DNA of 64,000 nt from Syntrophales bacterium (lineage in GTDB: Bacteria > Desulfobacterota > Syntrophia > Syntrophales > UBA2210). The notes under the pieces are model-generated. The model saw nothing but the letters and a program-made list of their open reading frames with translations. It made no database searches and was not told the origin of the DNA. Within the stretch, counting starts at the first letter, position 1. The number at the start of each line of letters is the position of its first letter. Shown in pieces: positions 1-60,916 of the stretch. The position numbers and the translations under genes are program-made. Location of the stretch: contig CAXXNF010000002.1 in NCBI GenBank assembly GCA_963666365.2, positions 384,001 to 448,000 of the forward strand, read 5' to 3'.

Positions 1-1134
<1,134 letters not shown>

Positions 1135-3129: not shown

Positions 3130-5214
3130 TTAGGAGTCCTCCTTTTCTTTCTTTGCCTCGGCAATCACCTTTTCCTGAATGTGGGCGGGAACTTCTTCAT
3201 AATGGGAAAATGCATAGGAGAATGAACCTCGACCGCTTGTGATTGAGGTGAGATCGGGGGCATAGGTCAGAATCTCCGCAAGGGGAACCTGACCCTTTAC
3301 CACCTGGTTGGGGCCATTTTTATCCATTCCAAGCACCCGGCCGCGACGACTGTTTAAATCTCCGATCACATCGCCCATATATTCGTCCGGTATCTCTATG
3401 TCGATATCCATGATCGGTTCGAGGAGTGTCGGCTGGCATTGATCGAACCCTTTTTTAAATCCCATAGAGCCTGCGATCTTGAAGGCCATTTCCGAAGAGT
3501 CAACAGTGTGATAGGACCCGTCCACAAGGCGCACCCGCACATCGACCACGGGATAGCCTGCCAGGATTCCGTCAACCATTGCCTCAACGATGCCCTTTTC
3601 GACGGCGGGTATATAGGTCTTGGGGATAACGCCGCCCACGATTGCATCCACGAATTCAAAGCCTTCACCGCGGGGAAGCGGTTCAATCTCAAGCCACGAA
3701 TCGCCGTACTGGCCGCGGCCGCCGGACTGCTTTTTATATTTGCCCTGAACGCGTGTTTTCCCCTTGATGGTTTCCTTATAGGGGACCTTGGGCTGTTTCA
3801 ATGAAACGTCAACGCCGAATTTTCTCTTCAATTTTTCAAGAGTCACATCGATATGCACCTGGCCCATGCCCGAAAGAATCATTTCTCTTGTCTCGTCGTT
3901 TCGGCGCAGTGTAAGCGTGGCGTCTTCTTCGATCAACCGGTTGAGTGAAGAGAATATTTTTTCTTCATCCCCTTTTGACTTGGGGAAGACGGCGAAGGAG
4001 GTTACCGGATTGACTGTCGACACCTTTTCATAAATTATGGGTGCCTTTTCATCGCAAATAGTATCGCCGGTCGATGTTTCTTTCAGTTTGGCCAGCGCCG
4101 CAATATCGCCAGGCACAAGTGATTCCGCAGGTTTTTGGTTTTTCCCTTCCAGATATGAAATGGCGCCGCATTTTTCCGAGAGCTGCTGTGAACTGTTGTA
4201 AAAGGTGAAATCGGCCTTTAATGTCCCTGAATAGACTCTGAAGAGAGTCAGTTTTCCTGCATAGGGATCAGCAATCGTTTTGAACACCATTGCCGAGAAA
4301 GGTTCCGATTCTTCGGGGTTGCGGATCTCTTCTTCTCCCGTTTTGGGGTTTATGCCTTTCACGGGACCCCGGTCGACCGGTGAGGGGAGATAACCGGTAA
4401 TCATATTCATCACGGTGGTGGGACCGATGTTTTTTAGGGCGGAACCGCAGGTGGCGGGAATCAAGTCGCCTGCCATAACCCCCTTGCGCAGACCCGATTT
4501 CAGATCCTCCGCCGAGAGCTCTCCTTCTTCAAGATAACGTTCCATCAACATTTCGTCGCATTCAGCGATGTCTTCCATCATCGCTTCACGATATTCCGAC
4601 GCTATTTCCGCTATATCGGCGGGGATCTCTTCACGTCTGACTTTGCCCTTCGGATCTTCAAAAAGCAATGCTTTCATTTCAATGAGATCGACCAGGCCTT
4701 TAAAAGCATCTTCCTGACCGATGGGAATATACAAGGGCGTTACTTTTTTGCCGAGACGCGCTTTAATGCTTTCGAGTGCAGCCAGGTAATTTGAACGCTC
4801 TCTGTCTATCTTATTGACATAAATGAATCTGGGCAGTTCAAGATCTTCCGCATAGGACCATACCTTTTCGGTTTGAAATTCGACGCCACCTACGGAATCG
4901 ACAACTATAATCGCGGCATCAACGACTCGAAGACAGTTTTTTGTATCCATGGCAAAGTTGCCGTCACCGGGCGTATCAATGAAATTCACTCTGTGTTTGT
5001 TCCATTCGAAATTGCTGACAGCGGAACTGATCGATATATGCCGCTTGTGCTCCTCGGGCTCAAAATCGAGACTTGATGATCCCTCATCGACTCTCCCTAT
5101 TTTGTCGGTCTTGCCGCTGATAAAAAGAAAAGATTCACAAAGGGTGGTCTTGCCTGTGCCACCATGACCGACAATCGCGATATTCCTTAAAGAGTGTGAG
5201 TCGTGTTTTGCCAT
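3130..5214 (-). CDS. fusA: Elongation factor G (EF-G2-type paralogue)
   Basis: GHGGTGKTT P-loop variant, DTPG, NKID, KKQSGGRGQYG; not in an str operon. Confidence 0.92.
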   Translation of the reverse strand: MAKHDSHSLRNIAIVGHGGTGKTTLCESFLFISGKTDKIGRVDEGSSSLDFEPEEHKRHISISSAVSNFEWNKHRVNFIDTPGDGNFAMDTKNCLRVVDAAIIVVDSVGGVEFQTEKVWSYAEDLELPRFIYVNKIDRERSNYLAALESIKARLGKKVTPLYIPIGQEDAFKGLVDLIEMKALLFEDPKGKVRREEIPADIAEIASEYREAMMEDIAECDEMLMERYLEEGELSAEDLKSGLRKGVMAGDLIPATCGSALKNIGPTTVMNMITGYLPSPVDRGPVKGINPKTGEEEIRNPEESEPFSAMVFKTIADPYAGKLTLFRVYSGTLKADFTFYNSSQQLSEKCGAISYLEGKNQKPAESLVPGDIAALAKLKETSTGDTICDEKAPIIYEKVSTVNPVTSFAVFPKSKGDEEKIFSSLNRLIEEDATLTLRRNDETREMILSGMGQVHIDVTLEKLKRKFGVDVSLKQPKVPYKETIKGKTRVQGKYKKQSGGRGQYGDSWLEIEPLPRGEGFEFVDAIVGGVIPKTYIPAVEKGIVEAMVDGILAGYPVVDVRVRLVDGSYHTVDSSEMAFKIAGSMGFKKGFDQCQPTLLEPIMDIDIEIPDEYMGDVIGDLNSRRGRVLGMDKNGPNQVVKGQVPLAEILTYAPDLTSITSGRGSFSYAFSHYEEVPAHIQEKVIAEAKKEKEDS

Positions 5215-28265: not shown

Positions 28266-28342
<77 letters not shown>

Positions 28343-29666: not shown

Positions 29667-29740
29667 ATATCCCGAAGTATTGGTTTCCCCTAGGGACCTT
29701 TCGTGTTGTATTGCCCAATTTTTGTACAAACAACTATCAA

Positions 29741-30225
29741 ATAAAAAAGCCCTACCTCTCACTTTGAGAAACAGGGCTTTTGACAGTCAAACCATAATCC
29801 CCCCTTGGGTTACAGCTGCTTCAAAGTAAACAAATGCATTCAAGATCGGCAAGTTATGTTAATCAGTAACTCTGTTAATGACGTTTTGTCAAGGGATATT
29901 GGCCTTTTAATTCAGCCGATACAATCCAACCCACTTCTATCGCGACAAAATCCCACAATGTGAGAATTTGCAATCAGCATATCAGCAGATAGAACCCCTC
30001 GAAGCCCAAGATATGAGACAATCTCTACCTTACCCCTCGGAGTTCGGTTTCTTTCCGTGGTACCCGCCAAAACACCCCCTACAGAGCAAAAGAAGGGGAG
30101 TATGTGAGATGGCGTTACCGTTTCCTGTACGGCATGTACGGGTACAAGGGACAGTCAGGGATTTGGCACTCAACCCGTCCGTCGATGAAGTAGCCCATAC
30201 ACTCATTACATTCGCAAGAATGTTT
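29741..30225. repeat. Island repeat R1, copy 1 (includes a relic of the Cys-rich gene)
   Basis: Colinear with 44438-44722 and 56986-57450. Confidence 0.9.
30115..30225 (-). pseudogene. 3' remnant of a paralogue of the Cys-rich ORF 57345-57551
   Basis: Translates ...CNECMGYFIDGRVECQIPDCPLYPYMPYRKR*, versus CCECSGYYIDGRVDCDIPDCPLYLHMPYRKP*. Confidence 0.85.
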
Positions 30226-30257
30226 TCTGTTTCGACATTTGGTTGTGAGTCACTTCT

Positions 30258-44403: not shown

Positions 44404-44437
44404 AGATGTCTCCCTTTCTATTGATCGGATCTTTTCA

Positions 44438-44722
44438 ATAAAAAAGCCCTATCTCTCATTTTGAGAAACAGGGCTTGATAATCAGACCATAATCCCTCCC
44501 AGGTTATAGCTGTTCGCAATCATACACATAAATTCAAGATCATGGTATCTCAGTAACTCCGTCCTTAACGTTTTGTCAAGGGATATTGCCCTTTTAATTC
44601 ATCCGATACAATCTAACCCACTTCTATCGCGACAAAATCCCACAATGTGGGAATTTGCAATCAGCATATCAACAGATAAAACCCCTCGAAGTCCAAGATA
44701 TGAGTCAACCCCTACCCTTACC
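44438..44722. repeat. Island repeat R1, copy 2 (directly upstream of the surface-protein gene)
   Basis: Colinear with 29741-30035 and 56986-57266. Confidence 0.9.
44440..44478 (-). terminator. Intrinsic terminator in the R1 leader (also at 29743-29779 and ~56986-57026)
   Basis: Minus strand AAGCCCTGTTTCTCA-AAA-TGAGAGATAGGGC-TTTTTT, about 36 bp before the ATG at 44403. Confidence 0.75.
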
Positions 44723-45249
44723 CGGAAACCGGGATAAATGTCCCAGTTTATACGCTGTTACCTGAATATCGTAGGCTATGAGCCGCATAGTGCCATCGCA
44801 CTAGGCCGCGTTATCGAATCGGTACTGTATGCTCCAACAAAGCGGTAGGCTTCTGACAAATCGGCATTTTTTGCCGTTTTGTTTTGATGCCTGTGCTTCG
44901 AGGGTTTCAATCTGCTTGTAGGCGGCTTGCAAATCATCCAAAATGGATAATTTGTTTTGATACTCGTATAACTTATACAAATATATGTGTTCCCGTCCGG
45001 GACACTTATCGGCCTGACTTACTCCCACCTGTGAGTAAGTTAAATTCCTTGAAGGTGGAAGATTGCTTGCGGGTTAGGCCAACGTCGGAAAGGGTTTTTT
45101 TAACCCTGTTCCCCTCGGTAACAAGGTTTGCTTGATTTTCTGATTGCCTCGCTATTTCCCCCCGTTCCTGCCCTTCACGAATGAGCTTGCCTATTTCTCG
45201 GCTTTTGCCCAGACTTCGATTGCTTTCACTAATCTTGGTGGGGGGACAA

Positions 45250-45452
45250 GCGGCTCGCAAATCCGCAATTTTTACGGTTTTGTGGCGATAGGCGTCTTGC
45301 AAATCGGACAAAATGGCCGTTTTGGTGCGGTAGGCGGTTTGCAAATCCGAATTTAATTCGGTTTATATGCTGTCTGTAAATTGGGAATAATTCCCGTTTT
45401 GTCACGGTAGGCGGTTTGCAAATCCGACAGAATGGCGGTTTTGTCACGGTAA
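45250..45452 (-). repeat. Five-unit tandem array (periods 42, 42, 35, 42 bp), each unit with a variable 25-bp palindrome
   Basis: Palindromes start at 45258, 45300, 45342, 45377 and 45419; units read as YRDKTAILSDLQTA-type peptides on the minus strand. Confidence 0.9.
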
Positions 45453-45503
45453 GAATAGAGCCGGGAGCTTTGTGCCAACTGGCACAGACCACATCCCGAC
45501 CTA

Positions 45504-46726
45504 GTACCATGTAACATAATATATTTCGTATTTATGGAAAATATGATATACTGGCGGCAATCCAACAAAGGAGGTTGCTATGTCGCCAAGATATCGAGTA
45601 ACCCTTACCAAAGAAGAGCGTAGAGAGCTTGAGGCAATGACACACAAAGGAAAGACCCATGCCAGAAAATTCATCCATGCTCGTGCGTTGCTGTTGTGCG
45701 ACGCCGGCGCTGACGGTTCTGCATGGAACGTTTCCGATGTCGCAGAGGCGCTTGGGGTGTCGAGCCGTTCGATTGAACATCTCAAGAAGCGGTTTGTGGA
45801 AGAAGGGCTTGAAGCCGCACTCGCACGCAGAGCACGGGAAAAACCTCCGCGCGACATCATCTTTGACGGCGCCTTTGAGGCGCGACTGGTTGCACTTGCC
45901 TGCTCGGATGCCCCGGAAGGGCGTCGGCGCTGGACGGTCAGATTGCTTGCCGACAAAGCCGTTGAGCTTGGCATTGCCGAATCCGTATCGCATATGACGG
46001 TGCAGCGGGTGTTAAAAAAAACGAATTTAAGCCTCACATCAGAAAGTACTGGAAAATCCCTCCCGAAGGGAACGCAGCCTTTGTAGCGTGCATGGAAGAT
46101 GTGCTGGAGATATATCATATGCCTTATGATCCCGCGTATCCGGTAGTATGCATGGATGAATCCTGCAAGCAGCTTGTCGGCGAAGTGCGAGAGCCCATGC
46201 CGTGCGTGCCGGGAAGACCGGCGCGCACAGATGACGAGTATGTCAGAAACGGGGTAGTGGAAATATTTATGGAAGTAGAGCCTCTCGCTGGCAGACGACA
46301 TGTGGCAATCACGGAACATCGCACCGGAAAGGATTGGGCGATGCAGATCAAGCAGATGCTCGATGAACGCTATTCCGGCGCTGTCAAGGTGCGCTTGGTC
46401 ATGGATAATCTGAATACCCATAGGATTGCCTCACTCTACGAAACATTCGAACCCGGTGAAGCCCGGCGTTTGGCGGAACGGCTAGAAATCCATTACACGC
46501 CCAAACATGGCAGTTGGCTCAATATGGCAGAGATCGAATTCAGCGCCCTGAAAGGACAATGCCTTGATCGCCGGATTCCTGATATAACAACCATGCGGGC
46601 TGAAGTAGCCGCATGGGAAAAAGACCGAAACAACAGTGCGAAGAACATTGTATGGCAATTTACTACCCCAGACGCTCGGATTAAATTGAAGCGTCTTTAT
46701 CCGAAGGTATAAAGGTTACATGGTAC
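45504..46726 (+). mobile_element. IS630-family insertion sequence
   Basis: Inverted ends GTACCATGTAAC / GTTACATGGTAC with TA duplicated in a CTAG target. Confidence 0.93.
45580..46712 (+). CDS. IS630 transposase (two ORFs joined by a probable -1 frameshift at the A8 tract ~46014-46021)
   Basis: HTH ORF 45580-46086 plus DDE ORF ending at 46712 (VCMDES, MDNLNTH, SWLNMAEIE). Confidence 0.9.
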
Positions 46727-46994
46727 TAGTGCCATGTGGCACGAGGTATCGAAGCTTGTGCTTCAACGAAATTATCAAAACGGAATTAATTGCCGATTTG
46801 CAAACGGCCTACCCGCAAGTAGACACCCTCGAAGCAAAGGAAATATGGGTCTCTTTGAAGAACTATACCATTCCTCCCACCGGCATTGACAGACGGATGT
46901 CGCACTAGGCTCAAGATGTGGCGAGTGTTTACGGGAAAGACGTGGAATCACATGGCGAAATCACAGTAATACACCTACGGACGCAGATAACTTT

Positions 46995-51808: not shown

Positions 51809-53419
51809 ATGATATTGACGGAAGCACAAGAGATTATCGACCGAAAAGATGCTGCCTGGATTCTGGAATTTGCCGCCCAAAAGGATGCCCAGATCGAAGC
51901 GCTTACCCAGAAGCTCGAATCCGCCCAGCGCCAGTTGACCACCCTGCAGCATCAGATGGAACAGCTGCTGAAACGGCTCTACGGCCGCAAGTCCGAAAAG
52001 ATCAACCCCGGTCAGCTGATGTTCGACGACATGGTGCTTCAATCATTAGAGCAGAATGCGGCGGTGAAAGCACAGTTCGAAGACGCTTCTGCCACAGAGA
52101 CTGTCAAGAAGCCCCGCAAGGCCTCCCGGCATCACGGCCGGGTTCCCATTCCGGAGCATCTCGAACGGGTGGAGATTCTGCTGGACGTGCCCGAGGATGA
52201 AAAGATCGATGCGGACACGGGCGCACCCCTGAAGGTCATTTCCGTGGAAGTCTCGGAGAAGCTGGAATACCGGCCGGGGAGACTGATCGTCAACGTCTAC
52301 AAGCGGCCCCAGTATGCGCTGCCGGAGGCATCGGAATCTACCGCCGGCGTCATCGCCGCCTCGCTGCCCGATCACCCCATCGCCAAGTGCAAAGCCGACG
52401 TGGGGCTGCTTTCTCATCTGATCGTCAGCAAGTACGCCGATCATCTGCCTCTCTACCGACAGAACAGCATTCTGGAGCGGGAAGGAGTGGACATTCCCCG
52501 GGCCACCCAAACCAGCTGGCTCATGCAGGTCTATGAGAGCATTCGTCCCTTGGAAACAGTGCTTCAAAAGGCCGTCCTTGAGAGGGACGTGCTCTTTACC
52601 GACGATACGCCCGTTCCTCTGCAGGTCAAGGGAAACGGCAAGGTAAAGAAGGCCCGTCTCTGGGTCTATCTGCGGGGCGGTCCGGGACCGCCGCTGACGG
52701 CCTATGACTTCTCCATTGATCGGAGCAAGACGCGCCCACTGGAGTATCTCAATGATTACCAGGGGTACGTCCATGCCGACGCCTACGGCGGCTACGACGA
52801 ACTTTTCAAAAAAGAAGAGATTATCGAAGTGGGTTGCTGGGCCCATACCAGACGGAAGTTCGACGAGGCGGTTTCATCGCGTCCTCAAGAGGCCACGGAC
52901 ATCCTTGCCCGCATCGCCCGGCTCTATCACGAGGTGGAGACCCCCTGTGCCGAGATGACGCCCGAGGAGCGGCGCCGTTTCCGGCAGGCGCATGCAACGC
53001 CGCTGCTTGAGGGAATCTTTGCAAAGATTGAGGAACTGAGGCCCCGGACGACGCCCTCGGAGCCGTTGCGGACGGCCATCAACTACGCCCTGAATCAGCG
53101 GGAGGCGCTCTGCCGCTATCTGAAAGACGGACGGTTAAGACCCGACAACAACCTGGCGGAAAACGCCATTCGGCCCATAGCGGTAGGTCGAAAAAACTGG
53201 CTCTTCGTGGGCAGCGAACGGGGCGGCCGGGCGGCGGCCCTTTATATGGGTCTCGTTCAATCTTGCAAAAACTGCGACGTCAACCCCTGGGAGTACTTTG
53301 ACGACATGCTTCGGCGGATCATGAGCCATCCCGTAAACCGCCTGCGGGAACTGCTTCCCGATCAGTGGAAGCCTGTGCCCAGGGATGAACGGGGCCTGAT
53401 CATCCAGGGAAAACAATAA
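51809..53419 (+). CDS. tnpC: IS66 DDE transposase TnpC
   Basis: KYADHLPLYRQ, DDTPV, CWAHTRRKF, DNNLAENAIR, GRKNWLF. Confidence 0.96.
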   Translation: MILTEAQEIIDRKDAAWILEFAAQKDAQIEALTQKLESAQRQLTTLQHQMEQLLKRLYGRKSEKINPGQLMFDDMVLQSLEQNAAVKAQFEDASATETVKKPRKASRHHGRVPIPEHLERVEILLDVPEDEKIDADTGAPLKVISVEVSEKLEYRPGRLIVNVYKRPQYALPEASESTAGVIAASLPDHPIAKCKADVGLLSHLIVSKYADHLPLYRQNSILEREGVDIPRATQTSWLMQVYESIRPLETVLQKAVLERDVLFTDDTPVPLQVKGNGKVKKARLWVYLRGGPGPPLTAYDFSIDRSKTRPLEYLNDYQGYVHADAYGGYDELFKKEEIIEVGCWAHTRRKFDEAVSSRPQEATDILARIARLYHEVETPCAEMTPEERRRFRQAHATPLLEGIFAKIEELRPRTTPSEPLRTAINYALNQREALCRYLKDGRLRPDNNLAENAIRPIAVGRKNWLFVGSERGGRAAALYMGLVQSCKNCDVNPWEYFDDMLRRIMSHPVNRLRELLPDQWKPVPRDERGLIIQGKQ

Positions 53420-54585: not shown

Positions 54586-55770
54586 CTATGGAGGCCACCT
54601 ACCGGTTTGTGACAGAAGAACCTCCTTCCGCACCATGATTCCCTTGCCGCAATGGGGGCATATCCGAAGATCAACGCCGGTCACCCGGAGGAATGTCTCT
54701 TCCCAGGGTTCTTTGGGGGAATCATTTTTCTCTGCCTGTTCCGGTATGCCGAGGAGCTTTTTGCACTGAGCAAGCTTTCTCTTTCGGTTCCGGTTGCTCA
54801 GCAGTCCGTAATAGCGGATCTTCATGAACTGATCGGGGAGAATGTGCAGGAGAAAGCGGCGGATGAACTCGAAGGCGTCGAGGGTCATGAGCTTGGTCTT
54901 GCCTTCCTTTGACGGATCGCGCACTCGGAAGGTAACATCGCGGGGGCCTATCCTAACAATTCTGTCGTTCGAGATGGCCACACGGTGGGTGTAGCGACCG
55001 AGATACTCGATGACATGTTTTGCGCTTCTGAAGGGTTCCTTGCAGTAGACAACCCACTCTTTGCGATAAAGATCGGCAACGAACTGTCGAAAGGTCGCCC
55101 GTTCCTTTAGGGCCTCGATCTTGCCGGGGAATCTCAGATCGGCTGCTTCGTAGGCTTTTTTGAGATAGTGAAGAAACTTACCCCGAAAGAGCCGGGAAAG
55201 AACCTTGACCGGCAGGAAGTAGTCCTCCTTCGCCGGAATCCATCGCTCCCCGTCAAGGGAAAGTCCGCCGCCTGTCACGATGCAGTGAACATGGGGATGA
55301 TCGATCAGGCTCTGCGACCAGGTGTGCAGGATGGCAATGCAGCCGATCTCAGCACCCAGATGACGATGATCGCGGGAAAGATCCATGATGGTCTCGGAGG
55401 CGGCCTTGAAAAGTATGTGGTAGAGGGTCTTCTGGTTCCGCAGGGCCAGCGGTCGAAGTTCCTGGGGAATCGTGAAAACGATATGCACGTAGGAAATGGG
55501 CAGCAAGTCCTTTTTTCTTGCCTCCAGCCACAGCTCTCGCTTCAGTCCCTGGCATTTGGGGCAGTGGCGATTCCGGCAGGAGTTGTAGGAGATCCGAACG
55601 GCACCGCAATGGTCGCATTCATCCACATGTCCGCCAAGCGCGGCGGTCCGGCATAGTTCAATGGCTCGCATCGCCCGGTGGTGTCGTCCGGCCATTCTGC
55701 CGCCATGGATATCTCGATAGGCCTCCCCAAATTCACGGAAGACCTGGGCCACTTCCGTGGTTCCACGCAT
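54586..55770 (-). CDS. IS91-family (HUH, Y2) rolling-circle transposase
   Basis: Zn-binding CRT..LGG...CDHC...NSCRNRHCPKC, HPHVH HUH motif, YLGRY Y2 motif, IRYYGLL. Confidence 0.95.
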   Translation of the reverse strand: MRGTTEVAQVFREFGEAYRDIHGGRMAGRHHRAMRAIELCRTAALGGHVDECDHCGAVRISYNSCRNRHCPKCQGLKRELWLEARKKDLLPISYVHIVFTIPQELRPLALRNQKTLYHILFKAASETIMDLSRDHRHLGAEIGCIAILHTWSQSLIDHPHVHCIVTGGGLSLDGERWIPAKEDYFLPVKVLSRLFRGKFLHYLKKAYEAADLRFPGKIEALKERATFRQFVADLYRKEWVVYCKEPFRSAKHVIEYLGRYTHRVAISNDRIVRIGPRDVTFRVRDPSKEGKTKLMTLDAFEFIRRFLLHILPDQFMKIRYYGLLSNRNRKRKLAQCKKLLGIPEQAEKNDSPKEPWEETFLRVTGVDLRICPHCGKGIMVRKEVLLSQTGRWPP

Positions 55771-55784
55771 GAAACGGCGACCCG

Positions 55785-56639
55785 CTAAAGAACGCTGTCC
55801 CGCGAGGCGGCGATCACGTCGAGGGGATTGGCGATCCGTTCAAAGTCCTTTCGAGAGAGGTGGAGGTAAACGGCCGTAGTCTTGGGGCTGGCGTGCCCCA
55901 GAAGCCGCTGTATGTGGTACAGGTCCGCCCCGTTCTCCAAGAGATGGGTGGCAAAGCTGTGGCGCAGGGTATGGACGCTCCCCGCTTTCCTAACGCCCGC
56001 TCTGAGCAGCGCATCTTTAAAGGCTTTCTGGACGCTTGACACTGAAAGAGGCGACCACTTGTCTTTGCCGAAGAAGAGCCAGTTCACGGGATGGCACTGC
56101 GACCAGTAAAACCGCAGTTCTTCCAGGGTCCGTTTGGCCAGCAGGGTGTAGCGGTCTTTGTTTCCCTTCCCCTGGCGTATGCGAATCACCATGCGTTCGC
56201 TGTCGATGTCGGACACTCTCAGATGCACGGCTTCATTGAGCCGCAATCCTCCCGAGTAGATCGTCATGAGAATGGCCCGATGCTTCAGATTGCCGACGAC
56301 CGAAAGAACGGCCCGCACCTCCTCCGGCGAAAAAACCGCAGGTAGGCTCTTTTGTTTCTTCGCACGAGGTATCCGGTAGGAGATCCAGTCGCGCTTCAAT
56401 GTCGTCTCATAGAAAAACTTCAGGGCGCTGTAAGTCTGACTCACCGTTGACTGAGAAGCCTTCTTCTCTTCGATGAGATAGTGAAGATAGGTCTTGATCT
56501 CTTCTTCTCCCAACGTCTCCGGCGACGCCCCAAAGTGACGCACAAATCTGCGCATGTGCTCCAGATAGCATTCCCGCGTCCTCCGGCTGAGGTGGCGCAG
56601 CTCCATATCGCGTTTCATCTGATCGCGCAGTCTTCCCAT
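55785..56639 (-). CDS. Tyrosine recombinase with N-terminal SAM-like domain (IntI-related, no IntI insertion)
   Basis: YSGGLR, KGNKDR, HTLRHSFATHLLE, LLGH...TTAVY; short segment between WLF and the HxLR box; ATG 56639 with AGGAG RBS. Confidence 0.92.
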   Translation of the reverse strand: MGRLRDQMKRDMELRHLSRRTRECYLEHMRRFVRHFGASPETLGEEEIKTYLHYLIEEKKASQSTVSQTYSALKFFYETTLKRDWISYRIPRAKKQKSLPAVFSPEEVRAVLSVVGNLKHRAILMTIYSGGLRLNEAVHLRVSDIDSERMVIRIRQGKGNKDRYTLLAKRTLEELRFYWSQCHPVNWLFFGKDKWSPLSVSSVQKAFKDALLRAGVRKAGSVHTLRHSFATHLLENGADLYHIQRLLGHASPKTTAVYLHLSRKDFERIANPLDVIAASRDSVL

Positions 56640-56985
56640 ATCTTTTCTCCTTTCTTGCATGAATGATGAATCATCCTTACAAAAAGAAGAACGATCAGGA
56701 CAGCAACAATGTACGCTATTCAATTGTCAAAGAACGACCATTTTTACTTAAAATACCGCCGCGTAGCGGCTTAGTTCAACTATTGTTTATACAGTTTCTG
56801 TGTAAATCCTTTACATAGCTGATTCAGCTATGTAATACATATTTTAATTGCGTTAAAAATCTTTATAAGTTGCTGCAATAAATAGGATATTGTGAAATTC
56901 GTCATTTATTTGAGTGTTTTATACAGAAACTGCGTAATACACCTTTCCGGTATGACTATCGCAATATTGATCTGAGCTGACCACC

Positions 56986-57450
56986 AAAAACAAAAGCCCT
57001 CTCTCATTTTGAGAAACACGGCTTCGATGATCAGACCATAATCCCCCCTTGGGTTATAGCTGTTTCAATTCAAGATCGGCAAGGTATGTTAATCAGTAAC
57101 TCTGTTAATGACGTTTTGTCAAGGGATATTGCCCTTTTAATTCATCCGATACAATCTAACCCACTTCTATCGCGACACAATCCCACAATGTGGGAATTTG
57201 CAATCAGCATGTCAACAGATAGAACCCCTCGAAGCCCAAGATATGAGTCAACCCCTACCTTACCCCTCAGAGTTTGGTTTCTTTCCTGGCACCCCCCTAA
57301 AACACCCACGCCAGAGCAAAGGAAAGGGTATATGAGATATGGCGCTACGGTTTGCGGTAGGGCATGTGAAGATAAAGGGGGCAGTCCGGTATGTCGCAAT
57401 CAACACGCCCGTCGATATAGTAGCCCGAGCACTCGCAGCATTTTGCAAGG
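56986..57450. repeat. Island repeat R1, copy 3 (in its intact context next to the satellite core)
   Basis: Colinear with copies 1 and 2. Confidence 0.9.
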
Positions 57451-57551
57451 ATCGCCTGTTTAAAACTGAGTCGCTGTCCCGCGTGATGCTTCAAAAGCTC
57501 GCGTTTTCCCTTAGCTCTGGGCGCTTTTTCAACGTTTTCGATGTGCTTCAT
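57345..57551 (-). CDS. Small Cys-rich protein (CxxC...CxxxxCPL)
   Basis: 68 aa, overlaps the upstream stop codon; a diverged relic is conserved at 30115-30225. Confidence 0.8.
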   Translation of the reverse strand: MKHIENVEKAPRAKGKRELLKHHAGQRLSFKQAILAKCCECSGYYIDGRVDCDIPDCPLYLHMPYRKP

Positions 57552-57814
57552 TTCGCCCCACCTTCAGCAAGTTTGCGAAGGAGCTCTTTTTGATTTCGAT
57601 AATCGGCCGAGAGAATTTCAAGAGTTATGTCATCGTGCCGCCACTTTCGCCCGTCTTTTCTGGGGAAGCGTTCGTCGAAATCCTCGCACAGGATATCGTA
57701 TAGCTCGGCGTCCGACATCTGTTCCACCGGATTTGCCCCTGGAGGCTTTAGCTTCTCTTCGAGTTTCGCGAGTCTGTTTTTATTGTCTTTCATTCTCCCT
57801 CGCCTCTCTTTCAT
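57548..57814 (-). CDS. Hypothetical protein
   Basis: Part of an overlapping small-gene operon; start probably the internal MKDNK. Confidence 0.65.
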   Translation of the reverse strand: MKERRGRMKDNKNRLAKLEEKLKPPGANPVEQMSDAELYDILCEDFDERFPRKDGRKWRHDDITLEILSADYRNQKELLRKLAEGGAK

Positions 57815-58125: not shown

Positions 58126-58917
58126 TCATAACACCGCCCGGATGCTCGAATATCGTTTTGGAAATTCAGTAATCGTTTCGCGCTCCGAAAAAACCCACTC
58201 AATTACTTCCGGATCTACCCCTAACGCTGCAACATCCATTGCAAACTTCATGGGGTTCGCGTCATATATCTTGAATAACTTACCCCAACCCAGGCAAAAG
58301 CGATTGAACTCATCAAATTTAGGAAGATCGGCCTTGATTTCGTTTAGCGCCCGCCCAAGATTGCGTTCCGCACGTATCAATTTTATCGCCGCCTCATTTT
58401 GCAGTTCTTTTAGGCGATCAACGATTTGCTTGACAATTCTGATTTGCTCATCTCTGGGAAGGGTATCATCTAGGTCATCTAGCTCTTTCCTCAGCGCCTC
58501 AATCTCTGACCGCACATCATCATAATGCGCCGATTTTTCACCCTCATCGTGGCTAAGTAGCTTATAGGCGCTTGTCAAATCGGAAACTGTTTCCGTTTTC
58601 AGCCTGTCACGCTCTCGATAAAGCCGCATATAACTACGCGCCGTCCGTGGCGTAAAAGGCAAATTGCCTTCAATCCACTTTTCAAATTCTCCGTGCTGAA
58701 GTTCAGACTTTGCAGACAGAAGCAGCTCTCCGATCCTGATTGCATCGGCAAGGGCATTTTTCATATATCCGCCGACTTGTTCATGAAGATGAATAATGGC
58801 GGCAACTCTTTCTTTCTGGCTCAGCTCACTGTCAAGGTTCGCCGCCTGCATAGCTTCTTTCGTGCCGCCTCTGTCATACACTTCCTGAATCTTGTTTGCT
58901 CTGCTCTGCTCATCCAT
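58126..58917 (-). CDS. DUF3102-like DNA-binding protein
   Basis: AIRIGELLLSAKSELQHGEFEKWIEGNLPFTPRTARSYMRLY is the DUF3102-type signature; GGAG RBS. Confidence 0.8.
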   Translation of the reverse strand: MDEQSRANKIQEVYDRGGTKEAMQAANLDSELSQKERVAAIIHLHEQVGGYMKNALADAIRIGELLLSAKSELQHGEFEKWIEGNLPFTPRTARSYMRLYRERDRLKTETVSDLTSAYKLLSHDEGEKSAHYDDVRSEIEALRKELDDLDDTLPRDEQIRIVKQIVDRLKELQNEAAIKLIRAERNLGRALNEIKADLPKFDEFNRFCLGWGKLFKIYDANPMKFAMDVAALGVDPEVIEWVFSERETITEFPKRYSSIRAVL

Positions 58918-59063: not shown

Positions 59064-60671
59064 CTATGGGAACCAGTCCCCGATCGGCCGCATTTCGGCG
59101 CCTCCAATCAATTTGTAATGCCTTTTCAGGCCTCGAGGGTTCCGTGAATTCCGCCATGCTTTGCAATCAATGATCTTTATACGGTTTGCCCTCGTTTCTG
59201 GTTCCCAGTCTAAGGCAATATACAGGCGCGCCTTTTCACGTGAGAAATCAGCGCCCCTTCCAACGTCCTTTCCGTCGGCCTTTTGCAACCCCAGGAATGC
59301 TATTCCTTTCCTCAATTTGTCATGAATAGCACCAATCGTTAAGGCAATTTTAGAGAAGTCCTCTGCGATTTCGAGGAAGTCAACGATCCATATTGCATCT
59401 GAGCCATCAATGAAGTCCGCTGGCATCTGACTTGATTTCAGGTTGTACACCCTCATGTGACTTGCCCACTCTTCAAGTTGTGTATCTTTGAAGGCCTGCA
59501 GACGCTTTCGCATCTCATTTGCGCCCATTTCGGAATTCAGGTAAACTACTCGGCGACGCCCCAGGTTCAAATGAGCCAAGTTTAGAAGGAATGCAGTCTT
59601 TCCCGCCTCCTTGCTTCCGGCAACAACGGCAATGTTTCCGGGGTATAGAATCCCCTGCTCTGCAAGGCCCAGTGGCAAAGCAATGTCGTATTCCTTCCCG
59701 TCGGCGCTGAGAAAGTCCATTTCTTCAAAATCCTTGTCAACGCGCCGGTAAACACCCGCCTGCTTTCCATACTTTTCGATGAGCCCCTCTTCCTTGAGCC
59801 GGTGAAAGATAACCCTGATCTGCCGTTTCTCTTCCGGTGAAACGCTTTGAAACTCTCTGTGACACTCTGAAACGTTTATGAAACCCTCTTGAAACGTCAG
59901 CCAGTCACGAACCTGCTCAACAAGATTTCCATCACGCCGCTTTGCACGCTTCAATGCACTGTCAATTTTTGCATTTACTTCGCTTATCGGGAACGGTGGA
60001 TTGCATGAAAAAGCAAGTCGTTGCAATATGTTAGTGGTTAGCTCTGTTTGACATCCGCCTTTGACGAGGCAGCTCGCAATGTGAAAAAGGGTGTCATCCC
60101 GCCGCCCTTCCATGAAACGCTCTGAAACGTCTGAAACGCTTTGAAACGTAGGTGTTTCATGCCCCTTATATTTTAATTTATTTAATAAGGCATCGGGGCA
60201 CGGTGCAGGTGCAGTCTCGTGAATGCTCAGTCCTTCAAGCCACTGGTACGCCTTGCCTGTCCCATTCACAGAAGGCGGTGCGATCACGTAGCCCCCGTCC
60301 CCACGCACATCAACACCAGGGATAATGCCCGTCGCATTGCCGATGCTCTGGCCCGGAGGCATGGCGAGGTAAATGTGGTACCCCCTGGGCGTTTTTGCAA
60401 TAGCGGTGATAAACGCATCGGGCAACAGCTCCTGAATGCGCTGGTATGCTTCCTCGTTATCGCAATCGACGACGAACACCCCTGATATTGCGCCGGTCAC
60501 AACCCCGATCATCGCATTGGGCCATCGCGTCCACCAATCTTGCAGCTCCTCTGCTGTCGCTTGTCTGCTCTGGTACTGTTCCCATTTGATGAACGGGCTC
60601 TTGTCGGGCCGCACAGGGATCACGGAAAATCCCCTTCCGTTGTATTGCAAGGCTGAATCGATCATATTCAT
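59064..60671 (-). CDS. Bifunctional primase-polymerase + PriCT + P-loop (RecA-like) helicase
   Basis: VVDCD, TPRGYH, DVRGDGGYVIAPPS, EGRRDDTLF, GSKEAGKT Walker A, IVDFLE Walker B; start at 60671 (ATGA overlap). Confidence 0.9.
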   Translation of the reverse strand: MNMIDSALQYNGRGFSVIPVRPDKSPFIKWEQYQSRQATAEELQDWWTRWPNAMIGVVTGAISGVFVVDCDNEEAYQRIQELLPDAFITAIAKTPRGYHIYLAMPPGQSIGNATGIIPGVDVRGDGGYVIAPPSVNGTGKAYQWLEGLSIHETAPAPCPDALLNKLKYKGHETPTFQSVSDVSERFMEGRRDDTLFHIASCLVKGGCQTELTTNILQRLAFSCNPPFPISEVNAKIDSALKRAKRRDGNLVEQVRDWLTFQEGFINVSECHREFQSVSPEEKRQIRVIFHRLKEEGLIEKYGKQAGVYRRVDKDFEEMDFLSADGKEYDIALPLGLAEQGILYPGNIAVVAGSKEAGKTAFLLNLAHLNLGRRRVVYLNSEMGANEMRKRLQAFKDTQLEEWASHMRVYNLKSSQMPADFIDGSDAIWIVDFLEIAEDFSKIALTIGAIHDKLRKGIAFLGLQKADGKDVGRGADFSREKARLYIALDWEPETRANRIKIIDCKAWRNSRNPRGLKRHYKLIGGAEMRPIGDWFP

Positions 60672-60916
60672 ATTGCACCACCTTTTCGCAACTCGGATCG
60701 TAGCACTTTCTCTACCTTCTCGGGCGTTTCGGAATCGTTGCAGCATCGCTGGCATAGGCAGTAGCGAATTAGTCGCGTTTTATCCTCAACCCCGCCGTAC
60801 GCTGCGGGTTCGTCAGGCAGAAAGACGCCGATCACCGCCGCGGCACCGCCGCAAATGAGACATGAATCGCCATCCCGCGGGTGCTTCATCAGTTCGAGGG
60901 CCTCATTCGTCGTCAT
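60668..60916 (-). CDS. Small zinc-finger-like protein
   Basis: CLIC...YCLCQRC; coupled to the primase start. Confidence 0.7.
   Translation of the reverse strand: MTTNEALELMKHPRDGDSCLICGGAAAVIGVFLPDEPAAYGGVEDKTRLIRYCLCQRCCNDSETPEKVEKVLRSELRKGGAI

Follow-up and report, generated by a model that had tools for sequence, protein, structure and literature searches.

A palindrome beside the predicted recognition helix of DUF3102 genes as the probable target of the encoded protein, and a decayed array of such sites in a Syntrophales genome

We analyzed a 64,000-nucleotide stretch of a Syntrophales bacterium genome (contig CAXXNF010000002.1, positions 384,001 to 448,000; hereafter the window, in whose own coordinates positions are given) that contains twelve imperfect 25-bp palindromes, one of them inside an intact gene of the DUF3102 family. 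Judged from sequence, each of these units is probably the cognate site, or address, of a dimeric helix-turn-helix protein of the DUF3102 type, bound as double-stranded DNA. In intact genes, the coding sequence itself would contain the target, 7 to 10 codons past the recognition helix, and the two would be inherited and exchanged as one specificity cassette located at the junction of a conserved N-terminal domain (N-domain) with a variable, partner-binding C-terminal part. The intact gene in the window would represent a widespread invariant allele, and the eleven other copies would be bare sites of about nine other specificities, lying in decayed remnants of related elements, with their cognate protein not encoded by the genome. 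More tentatively, we propose that arrays of such foreign sites may recruit or titrate the proteins of other elements, a form of centromere or origin mimicry with hijack or incompatibility as its outcome.

One line of evidence for the pairing of site and protein is covariation. We observed that the palindrome arms vary together with the helix encoded 7 to 10 codons upstream and not with the codons in between. After tabulating 69 distinct units, we found that a given five-residue helix motif recurred with its half-site in differing surroundings, as in the pairs RTAR.Y with CGG.AA, RTAY.Y with TTGC, RTAQRY with CCGACA, and KTAEKY with TCGAAT. A single genetic background carried at least five different cassettes, and one cassette occurred in two backgrounds. 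Over 32 genes, arm distance correlated with helix distance (measured on five helix residues) with an r of 0.79, and the corresponding values were 0.65 for 22 genes of the hypervariable subfamily described below and 0.55 for 20 distinct pairs. In contrast, the r of arm distance with the seven residues separating helix and site was 0.02 to 0.19, and that with the N-terminal background was 0.02 to 0.17. The low value for the intervening residues is what makes the helix correlation telling. A Leptospira plasmid gene likewise combined an RTAQRY helix with a CGACA-type palindrome at the corresponding place.

A second, independent sample was collected by protein homology and comprised 120 proteins, 102 of which could be parsed into 69 distinct octapeptides, the eight residues that the unit encodes. 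Positions 2 and 7 of the octapeptide were concordant with base pairing in 93 of the 102 proteins. Helix positions 1, 4, 5, and 7, which form one helix face, varied, and positions 2, 3, and 6 were fixed. The partial r of the site with the helix was 0.38, compared to 0.08, 0.20, and -0.07 for other segments. Permutation gave no match to the helix-arm correlation of the 32-gene set (0 of 3,000) and none that reached the value of the second sample (0 of 1,000), figures that overstate significance in that the sequences are related by descent.

The symmetry of the units fits a site in duplex DNA. Among 62 distinct units, each of the pairs 6 to 11 was of Watson-Crick type in 49 to 61 units and was formed by two to four different Watson-Crick pair types. 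Mismatches were G-T in 11 cases and A-C in 6, with G-T not clearly commoner. The peptide follows the same pairing, with I, L, M, or V at octapeptide position 2 accompanied by N at position 7 and T or S accompanied by D. One stretch of DNA would in this way hold two codes, the predicted binding site constraining the amino acids that are encoded.

The DUF3102 protein of the window matched PF11300 at 44.7 bits (E of 2e-11; curated cut-off of 24.4 bits), bearing out the initial annotation, made from sequence alone, which had placed the copy at 58576 in frame in a DUF3102-like gene. For this analysis, we coined the labels T-type for conserved members of the family and Q-type for hypervariable ones; the silent copies in the window are Q-type. 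The whole genome contained one DUF3102 gene and no Q-type gene. We found 85 homologues of the DUF3102 gene and aligned 25 of them. The segment around the octapeptide KTETVSDL was the best conserved stretch of the protein, and it closes the conserved N-domain, beyond which the sequences were unrelated. A scan of one genome per species yielded 11 loci from several phyla, and 10 of these held the segment with the same DNA (metagenome-assembled genomes of Planctomycetota, "delta proteobacterium," Latescibacterota, Syntrophobacteraceae, Limisphaerales, and Flavobacteriaceae). Codons were counted over these 10 loci and the window, 11 genes in all. The arms used single codons, with AAA in 10 of 10, ACG in 8 of 8, GAA in 11 of 11, GTT in 11 of 11, TCC in 10 of 11, GAT in 9 of 9, and TTG in 11 of 11, and variation in the in-gene site occurred at the central codon only. 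The remaining conserved residues of the DUF3102 domain used two to six codons each. At three loci, an amino acid change keeps or improves pairing. These single arm codons and pairing-preserving changes show that selection at the DNA level acts on the in-gene palindrome itself as well as on the peptide.

A pattern of the silent-copy type had 132 matches in metagenome and viral contigs, and their pairing was bimodal (69 with 4 to 7 pairs, 8 with 8 pairs, and 55 with 9 to 11 pairs). Many of the well-paired matches lay inside intact open reading frames (ORFs) of 220 to 330 amino acids that score as DUF3102 in Pfam, with E values of 1.5e-6 to 6.6e-13 for the Q-type genes at viral and metagenome loci. 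These Q-type genes share a layout of a conserved N-domain, the octapeptide K-x6-L, the motif Q.AY.QIE.LEAQ, and a conserved C-terminal part. In viral contigs, the Q-type gene follows an antirepressor-domain gene and precedes recombination or replication genes. The Q-type family numbers at least 238 proteins at an E of up to 1e-8; none of them carries a functional name, and most come from metagenomes and viral contigs. A tblastn search of cultured phage genomes gave no match, PHROGs returned families of unknown function only, and a protein atlas returned unnamed clusters only. The Q-type segment is hypervariable yet always palindromic. The hypervariability with palindromy that the initial annotation had put forward for testing was hence absent from close homologues of the window gene, which are invariant, and present in the sister subfamily, where palindromy is retained.

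We modeled the window DUF3102 protein with AlphaFold (mean predicted local distance difference test score [pLDDT] of 84). In the model, short helices at residues 78 to 85 and 90 to 101 form a helix-turn-helix-like arrangement with the variable positions in the second helix, and the octapeptide extends across the following two short helices. A homodimer model scored 0.54 versus 0.00 for the best control, with at least 62% of contacts shared between runs and a partner pLDDT of at least 65; among proteins of solved structure, 20 of 30 same-chain pairs and 1 of 23 single chains attained this mark. The predicted interface involves residues 33 to 72 (two long helices) and leaves helices 78 to 101 free, and such a homodimer would fit a symmetric site. 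Alignment of the N-domain model to DNA-bound SopB (3mkw_B) gave a Z score of 4.9 and a root mean square deviation of 3.5 over 66 aligned residues, and the other ParB-family alignments gave Z scores of 4.6 (3mky_P), 4.1 (P1 ParB, 1zx4_A), 4.0 (VirB, 3vwb_A), and 3.9 (Spo0J, 1vz0_A); all five values lie within what helical models reach by chance.

The initial annotation had listed twelve 25-bp palindromes in the window, and all twelve were found at the positions and on the strands given there, each with 9 to 11 complementary pairs of 12 (Table 1). In most units, six bases separate the palindrome from a downstream GCNTAY. The loose outer motif, with at most one mismatch, had 23 matches in the window compared to 9.7 expected, and none of 100 shuffles reached 23. 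When at least 9 of 12 pairs were also required, 11 places remained, compared to a mean of 0.04 and a maximum of 2 in 200 first-order Markov simulations. Across the 4.0-Mb genome, a 37-nucleotide pattern with up to two mismatches gave 30 hits, of which 12 had 9 to 11 pairs, every one of them in the window, and the other 18 had only 2 to 8 pairs. The twelve units occupy a single 29-kb stretch and, since well-paired hits occur only in the window, they form a local family rather than a genome-wide repeat. The pattern scan of 401 genomes of the phylum recovered only the window's genome and one nonpalindromic chance hit. Rfam reported over the window a tRNA alone at gathering score, and nothing with an E of up to 1 on 56900 to 57300. 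In a genome of the window's family, a 26-nucleotide relative of the unit lies among duplicated gene fragments (L001, G012:C13, about 1150 to 1560) and adjoins a tRNA-like stretch and an HK97-type capsid gene in decayed, prophage-like DNA.

The peptide readings first proposed for the units held overall, with three amendments: the unit at 29946 reads KIPQCENL, that at 57176 starts with T rather than K, and that at 45342 opens with a stop codon and departs from the outer motif at two positions. Between the units at 45300 and 45419, both of which encode KTAILSDL, the compensatory C-G to G-C swap that had been described is real. One further correction concerns the unit at 46776, which does not stand alone but belongs to the remnant of a plus-strand gene whose N-terminal part was cut off by an IS630-type insertion. 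The eleven units other than the in-gene site fall into about nine half-site classes, some of them identical or nearly identical to sites elsewhere.

Table 1. Palindromic units and associated features of the window
Feature	Position	Strand	Remarks
Unit of the 57176 kind, one base different	29946..29970	+	In third end-segment copy, 29738-30204
Unit of the 57176 kind	44633..44657	+	In second, truncated end-segment copy, 44437-44723
Stand-alone unit	44857..44881	-	Core class like that of intact genes in loci L144 and L052
Unit with Q.AY-KQIETLEAQ continuation	44930..44954	-	End of frameshifted pseudogene
Pseudo-ORF; helix-turn-helix motif of a second kind (..TRKQSS..)	45006..45344	-	Motif precedes unit in loci L058 and L024
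Five tandem units, each with a different core	45258..45443	-	Unit starts at 45258, 45300, 45342, 45377, and 45419
16-bp perfect palindrome of another kind	45471..45486		Between array and divergent gene remnant
IS630-type insertion sequence	45501..46729	+	Splits locus; HTH_32 and DDE_3 in two frames; 15-bp terminal inverted repeats
Remnant of Q-type DUF3102-like gene	46730..46908	+	Helix trace, unit 46776-46800, then Q.AY..(V)DTLEA
Stand-alone unit	57176..57200	+	In end segment 56985-57434 of integrated PrimPol/DUF3102 element
Intact DUF3102 gene, 263 amino acids, T-type	58126..58917	-	Pfam PF11300; conserved N-domain, unrelated C-terminal part
In-gene palindrome, reads KTETVSDL	58576..58600	-	7-10 codons past predicted recognition helix (residues 90-101)
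PrimPol-helicase gene beside DUF3102 gene	59064..60755	-	Pfam Prim-Pol (1.4e-35), AAA_25, DnaB_C

The array locus, at 44.7 to 46.95 kb, is decayed. In it, two minus-strand units close a frameshifted pseudogene that carries the second helix-turn-helix motif, and the tandem block, the 16-bp palindrome, the IS630-type insertion, and the divergent plus-strand remnant follow. Starts of successive units in its tandem block are separated by 42, 42, 35, and 42 bp, a period of 42 bp with one 35-bp step, and 9 of 12 positions pair in each of these units. Past the units, the reading frames run for 10 to 45 codons before a stop, and the pseudo-ORF that overlaps the block had no match in Pfam or PHROG. One sequencing run, probably the source run, covered the array, in a single low-depth contig of 893 bp that was identical and without variants; three other runs contained the IS630-type element, at high depth, and a repeat, with the array not among their sequences. 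The array of the window is probably no longer active. Palindromes of the type TGTGCCA-N2-TGGCACA flank the insertion sequence (IS) on both sides, at 45471 to 45486 and at about 46729 to 46742, and another lies beside units at about 405 to 420 of L102, a 1.4-kb metagenome contig; this palindrome is possibly an operator of divergent genes.

Arrays also occur in other elements; the initial annotation had suggested a search for them near DUF3102 genes elsewhere. We found mixed arrays in three small, homologous plasmid-like contigs (L145, L069, and L133) with near-identical flanks and different sets of two to four units at a 42-bp period. The gene order in these contigs is primase, ParA, a ribbon-helix-helix ORF, a helix-turn-helix ORF, four short direct repeats, the array, a serine recombinase, and DnaB (the last seen in L069). 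Some unit cores of the plasmid arrays match in-gene sites of viral contigs exactly, one unit being identical to that of L141, and a search of the 9.3-kb L145 record found the DUF3102 gene absent. The plasmid primase gene of L023 (3686 to 4885, minus strand) has an in-frame insertion of two 14-codon units that separates its zinc-binding part from its Toprim part; the primase is otherwise 71% identical to that of L069 (1073 to 2212, plus strand). The units behave as 42-bp modules that can be placed in frame even in unrelated genes. The four short direct repeats, which are of the CCGTTACT type, separate the array from the ParA operon (L145, about 1000 to 1100, minus strand; L069, about 3895 to 3945; and L133) and are likely the plasmids' own centromere or iterons.

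Gene context points to a role in replicon maintenance. T-type genes are flanked by DnaB, AAA_25, D5_N/DUF5906, PriCT_2, and PolA genes and by integrases, and in the window the DUF3102 gene belongs to the element's replication module, next to the PrimPol-helicase gene. Eight Leptospira plasmids, two of them inspected, have the DUF3102 gene directly after a ParA-like ATPase gene, with whose end it overlaps, and ahead of rep. A report on Leptospira plasmids names the genes at the corresponding positions parA-parB-rep by bioinformatic assignment (PMC4338851). One homologue (P0065) has a ParB_N domain after the DUF3102 domain. The unrelated C-terminal parts of the family may be adaptors to different partners. 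The role may be centromere-like, origin-like, or autoregulatory (roadblock).

From about 57.0 kb to past the window's end, the minus strand holds the integrated element, which contains, in order, an integrase fragment, an HTH_3 protein gene, an ORF of 396 amino acids, the PrimPol-helicase gene, the DUF3102 gene, three small ORFs, and a conserved end segment. The three copies of the end segment are 83 to 85% identical and nearly perfect around the unit, and a promoter and terminator scan of the segment found nothing. The third copy retains the remnant of a small zinc-finger ORF. PADLOC assigned no defense family to the DUF3102 gene or its neighbors, and the HTH_3 protein matched generic helix-turn-helix models only.

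Two further features were noted next to the units. A repeat of about 150 bp adjoins an end-segment unit at three places (56985 to 57132, 29738 to 29901, and 44437 to 44589) and has at least seven copies in the genome, the others including G000 C2 near window-relative 1291651, 174001, and 1792510 and C1 near 186382. On the minus strand its GC-rich hairpin precedes a T-run, and its far end has a TTGACA-like box; it looks like a small multi-copy transcription unit; Rfam and simple promoter and terminator scans of the repeat gave nothing. A small cysteine-rich ORF (CxxC ... CP.YP.R) also adjoins units, both in the window (57348 to 57563, minus strand, and a remnant at 30118 to 30249, minus strand) and in three unrelated metagenome loci (L085, 1106 to 1570; L093, 665 to 946; L102, 2 to 265), and it had no match in Pfam or PHROG. 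Just outside the element, an IS91-family Y2 transposase gene is directly followed by a tyrosine recombinase gene (54586 to 56723, minus strand); this IS91-type unit is multi-copy, with a near-identical stretch about 1.47 Mb further along the contig. An IS66-family transposase gene occupies 51809 to 53419 (plus strand). The region from 28 to 64 kb, which begins beside a tRNA-Arg(TCT) gene (28266 to 28342), is dense in insertion sequences and element remnants.

Several observations weigh against the reading of the units as cognate sites of DUF3102 proteins and of the arrays as collections of foreign addresses. Helix and octapeptide are adjacent in the protein, so their covariation could be partly protein-internal. 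Fold matches to the ParB family are weak (Z scores of 3.9 to 4.9), and unrelated helical proteins rank above them. A Foldseek search with the full model returned nothing at an E of up to 0.001, and a PDB profile search returned nothing relevant. The window DUF3102 protein has no ParB_N domain in Pfam, and no ParA was found among the window ORFs scanned with Pfam. The in-gene site is single in the window and single in a 42-kb viral record, unlike multi-site centromeres and origins; a site present once per element fits an address or a roadblock. As for the arrays, the flanks of the 11 homologous loci contained none, mixed arrays are rare, and only one viral contig had one; a junction-pattern scan of viral contigs returned that already known array and one chance hit. 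The window's array sits among frameshifts and an insertion sequence and has the sequencing support of one low-depth contig. Its proposed purpose, whether hijack, titration, or sensing, is an inference drawn from gene context and from the analogy to SGI1 discussed below.

With these points taken into account, we consider the pairing of site and DUF3102 protein moderately probable and the recruitment or titration of foreign proteins by arrays a possibility that we hold tentatively. The suggestion in the initial annotation that the copies are captured operator or decoy sites comes close to the reading that we favor, in which the silent copies would be bare sites of several specificities in a genome that lacks their cognate protein. 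The main rival for the array part accepts the sites as real targets and takes the window's arrays and scattered copies to be functionless debris of recombination, slippage, and decay at the junction of DUF3102-like domains. The region does contain many frameshifts and an IS insertion, the units at 46776 and 44930 are the ends of broken genes, one spacer is 7 bp shorter and one unit opens with a stop codon, and the unit is located at the very junction where N- and C-terminal parts shuffle. However, noncoding units retain 9 to 11 of 12 pairs despite their different cores, and the array units cannot be displaced whole cassettes because they lack the helix. Furthermore, arrays with different contents recur between conserved flanks on small, apparently intact plasmids, and the three end-segment copies are far better conserved around the unit than elsewhere. 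We regard debris as an unlikely, if quite conceivable, account of the arrays.

Other explanations replace the DUF3102 protein as the reader of the sites. If the unit acted as a hairpin in single-stranded DNA or RNA, its core would need only to pair; such a hairpin might be a signal for a primase or for initiation, be the target of a transposase or recombinase, or regulate an mRNA. Maintenance of pairing by compensatory changes, the PrimPol gene adjacent in the window, a sense-strand G-T pair in one homologue, and the conservation of an A-opposite-A nonpair (positions 5 and 21) in 57 of 62 units are consistent with this idea, but the nonpair is also imposed by the K-T/I and D/N-L codons, the unpaired center is only about 3 nucleotides, and G-T mismatches are not clearly favored over A-C (11 versus 6). 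A core that tracks upstream helix residues and one allele frozen across phyla also argue against a hairpin, which we deem improbable. It is more improbable still that the units are crossover sites of a site-specific recombinase, of the res/hix or dif kind, with arrays formed by cassette capture. In L069 and L133 the arrays are followed, about 150 bp downstream, by a serine recombinase gene, and in L008 there is one near the gene, close relatives differ in array content, and two units are in frame in a primase gene. Yet no serine recombinase was present among the window ORFs scanned with Pfam, the tyrosine recombinase gene at 55785 to 56723 belongs to the multi-copy IS91-type unit, and the cores track the DUF3102 helix; moreover, both arms change together, whereas recombination between unlike sites would give hybrids.

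The initial annotation had also raised the possibility that the silent copies are donor cassettes for hairpin-mediated diversification of a DNA-binding protein, which in a gene conversion form would explain why an expressed gene has so many variants of one gene segment close by and why the segment is hypervariable in the sister subfamily. This proposal is not supported. The would-be donors lack the matching, co-varying helix, the resident gene belongs to the invariant subfamily and its site is an allele invariant across phyla, no reverse transcriptase or dedicated recombinase was found among the ORFs scanned, and the single covering contig was unchanged, with zero variants, so that we give donor cassettes very little credence. 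Least credible of all is a genome-wide family of repetitive extragenic palindromes or bacterial interspersed mosaic elements, which the units resemble in being imperfect palindromes, clustered in both orientations, with an opposite-strand GTAG-containing flank; all 12 copies are in one 29-kb stretch of a 4-Mb genome, and relatives of the unit sit inside phage and plasmid genes.

A few candidate systems were rejected outright. In a CRISPR array, the variable part would not be a self-complementary core of 13 to 15 bp, and no cas family was found among the ORFs scanned. Shufflons or invertible cassettes do not fit reading frames that end within 10 to 45 codons behind the units, with no dedicated recombinase beside the array, and transcription terminators do not fit units that are not consistently followed by a T-run. 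Integron attC sites and diversity-generating retroelements were considered and dropped.

If units are cognate sites of DUF3102 proteins, a wider picture can be sketched, which we offer as a doubtful but coherent possibility. Elements would carry a one-site address inside the gene of its reader, dozens of orthogonal pairs would exist, and other replicons would keep libraries of addresses in order to be replicated or partitioned by, or to sense, titrate, or expel, arriving elements. Such libraries would amount to centromere or origin mimicry with many targets and, if true, to a new multi-target tactic in conflicts between mobile elements. The pairing of site and protein would itself give a testable function to the uncharacterized DUF3102 family, which is widespread in phages, plasmids, and integrated elements. 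It would also provide a natural set of dozens of matched pairs of predicted recognition helix and operator from which a recognition code could be read and orthogonal parts drawn.

Binding sites located within the binder's own gene, tandem centromere repeats, and parS mimicry are each already known separately. What appears to be undescribed is a single site fixed beside the recognition helix and co-varying with it as a cassette across a large family, synonymous sites frozen across phyla, and arrays of many specificities on replicons in which no cognate gene was found (as searched in one plasmid record and this genome). A full-text literature search for DUF3102 found passing mentions only, and a search for a centromere-binding protein with its site beside the recognition helix found nothing fitting, in a coverage that leaves out most subscription journals.

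Three known systems place a palindrome or a binding site inside a gene. Copies of parS can lie inside the parB/spo0J gene. As with ParB and parS, a helix-turn-helix protein, dimeric in our model, would be paired with a palindrome that its own gene may contain. The Leptospira DUF3102 gene is in the parB position after a ParA-like gene, one homologue has ParB_N, and the fold comparison gives a weak resemblance at a level that helical models reach by chance. Unlike ParB, the window protein has neither a ParB_N/CTPase domain nor a ParA neighbor, and the DUF3102 site is always at a fixed place by the recognition helix, with both varying together as a cassette. In phage lambda, the origin is inside the O gene, and initiator and origin specificity are swapped together among lambdoid phages. 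The DUF3102 genes are similar in that the predicted site is in the binder's gene at the junction of N- and C-terminal domains, with replication genes adjacent; they differ in having one site rather than four iterons and an AT-rich region, and an initiator function is only conjectural. Rickettsia palindromic elements are inserted in frame in genes and, like the two units in the primase gene, are short palindromic modules with a length that is a multiple of three. In contrast to them, the units described here are 42 bp, tied to one family of DNA-binding proteins, and not genome-wide.

The arrays find their closest counterparts in plasmid partition. One report describes the sopC centromere of F as 12 repeats of 43 bp with a 16-bp inverted repeat in each (PMC3177203). 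Both sopC and the window array are built of tandem inverted-repeat units of nearly the same period (about 43 bp in sopC, where the partition protein SopB binds them, and 42 bp in the window). The sopC repeats are nearly identical and serve one protein, whereas the window array has five cores in five units and the L145 record, which hosts an array, lacks the protein. For SGI1, a report states that its parS mimics of IncC sites hijack ParB and expel the helper plasmid (PMC10954446). The likeness that we propose is that of a mobile element that holds copies of another element's address site, using the foreign protein for its own stability and displacing the other. SGI1 mimics one partner, whereas the arrays described here combine several specificities.

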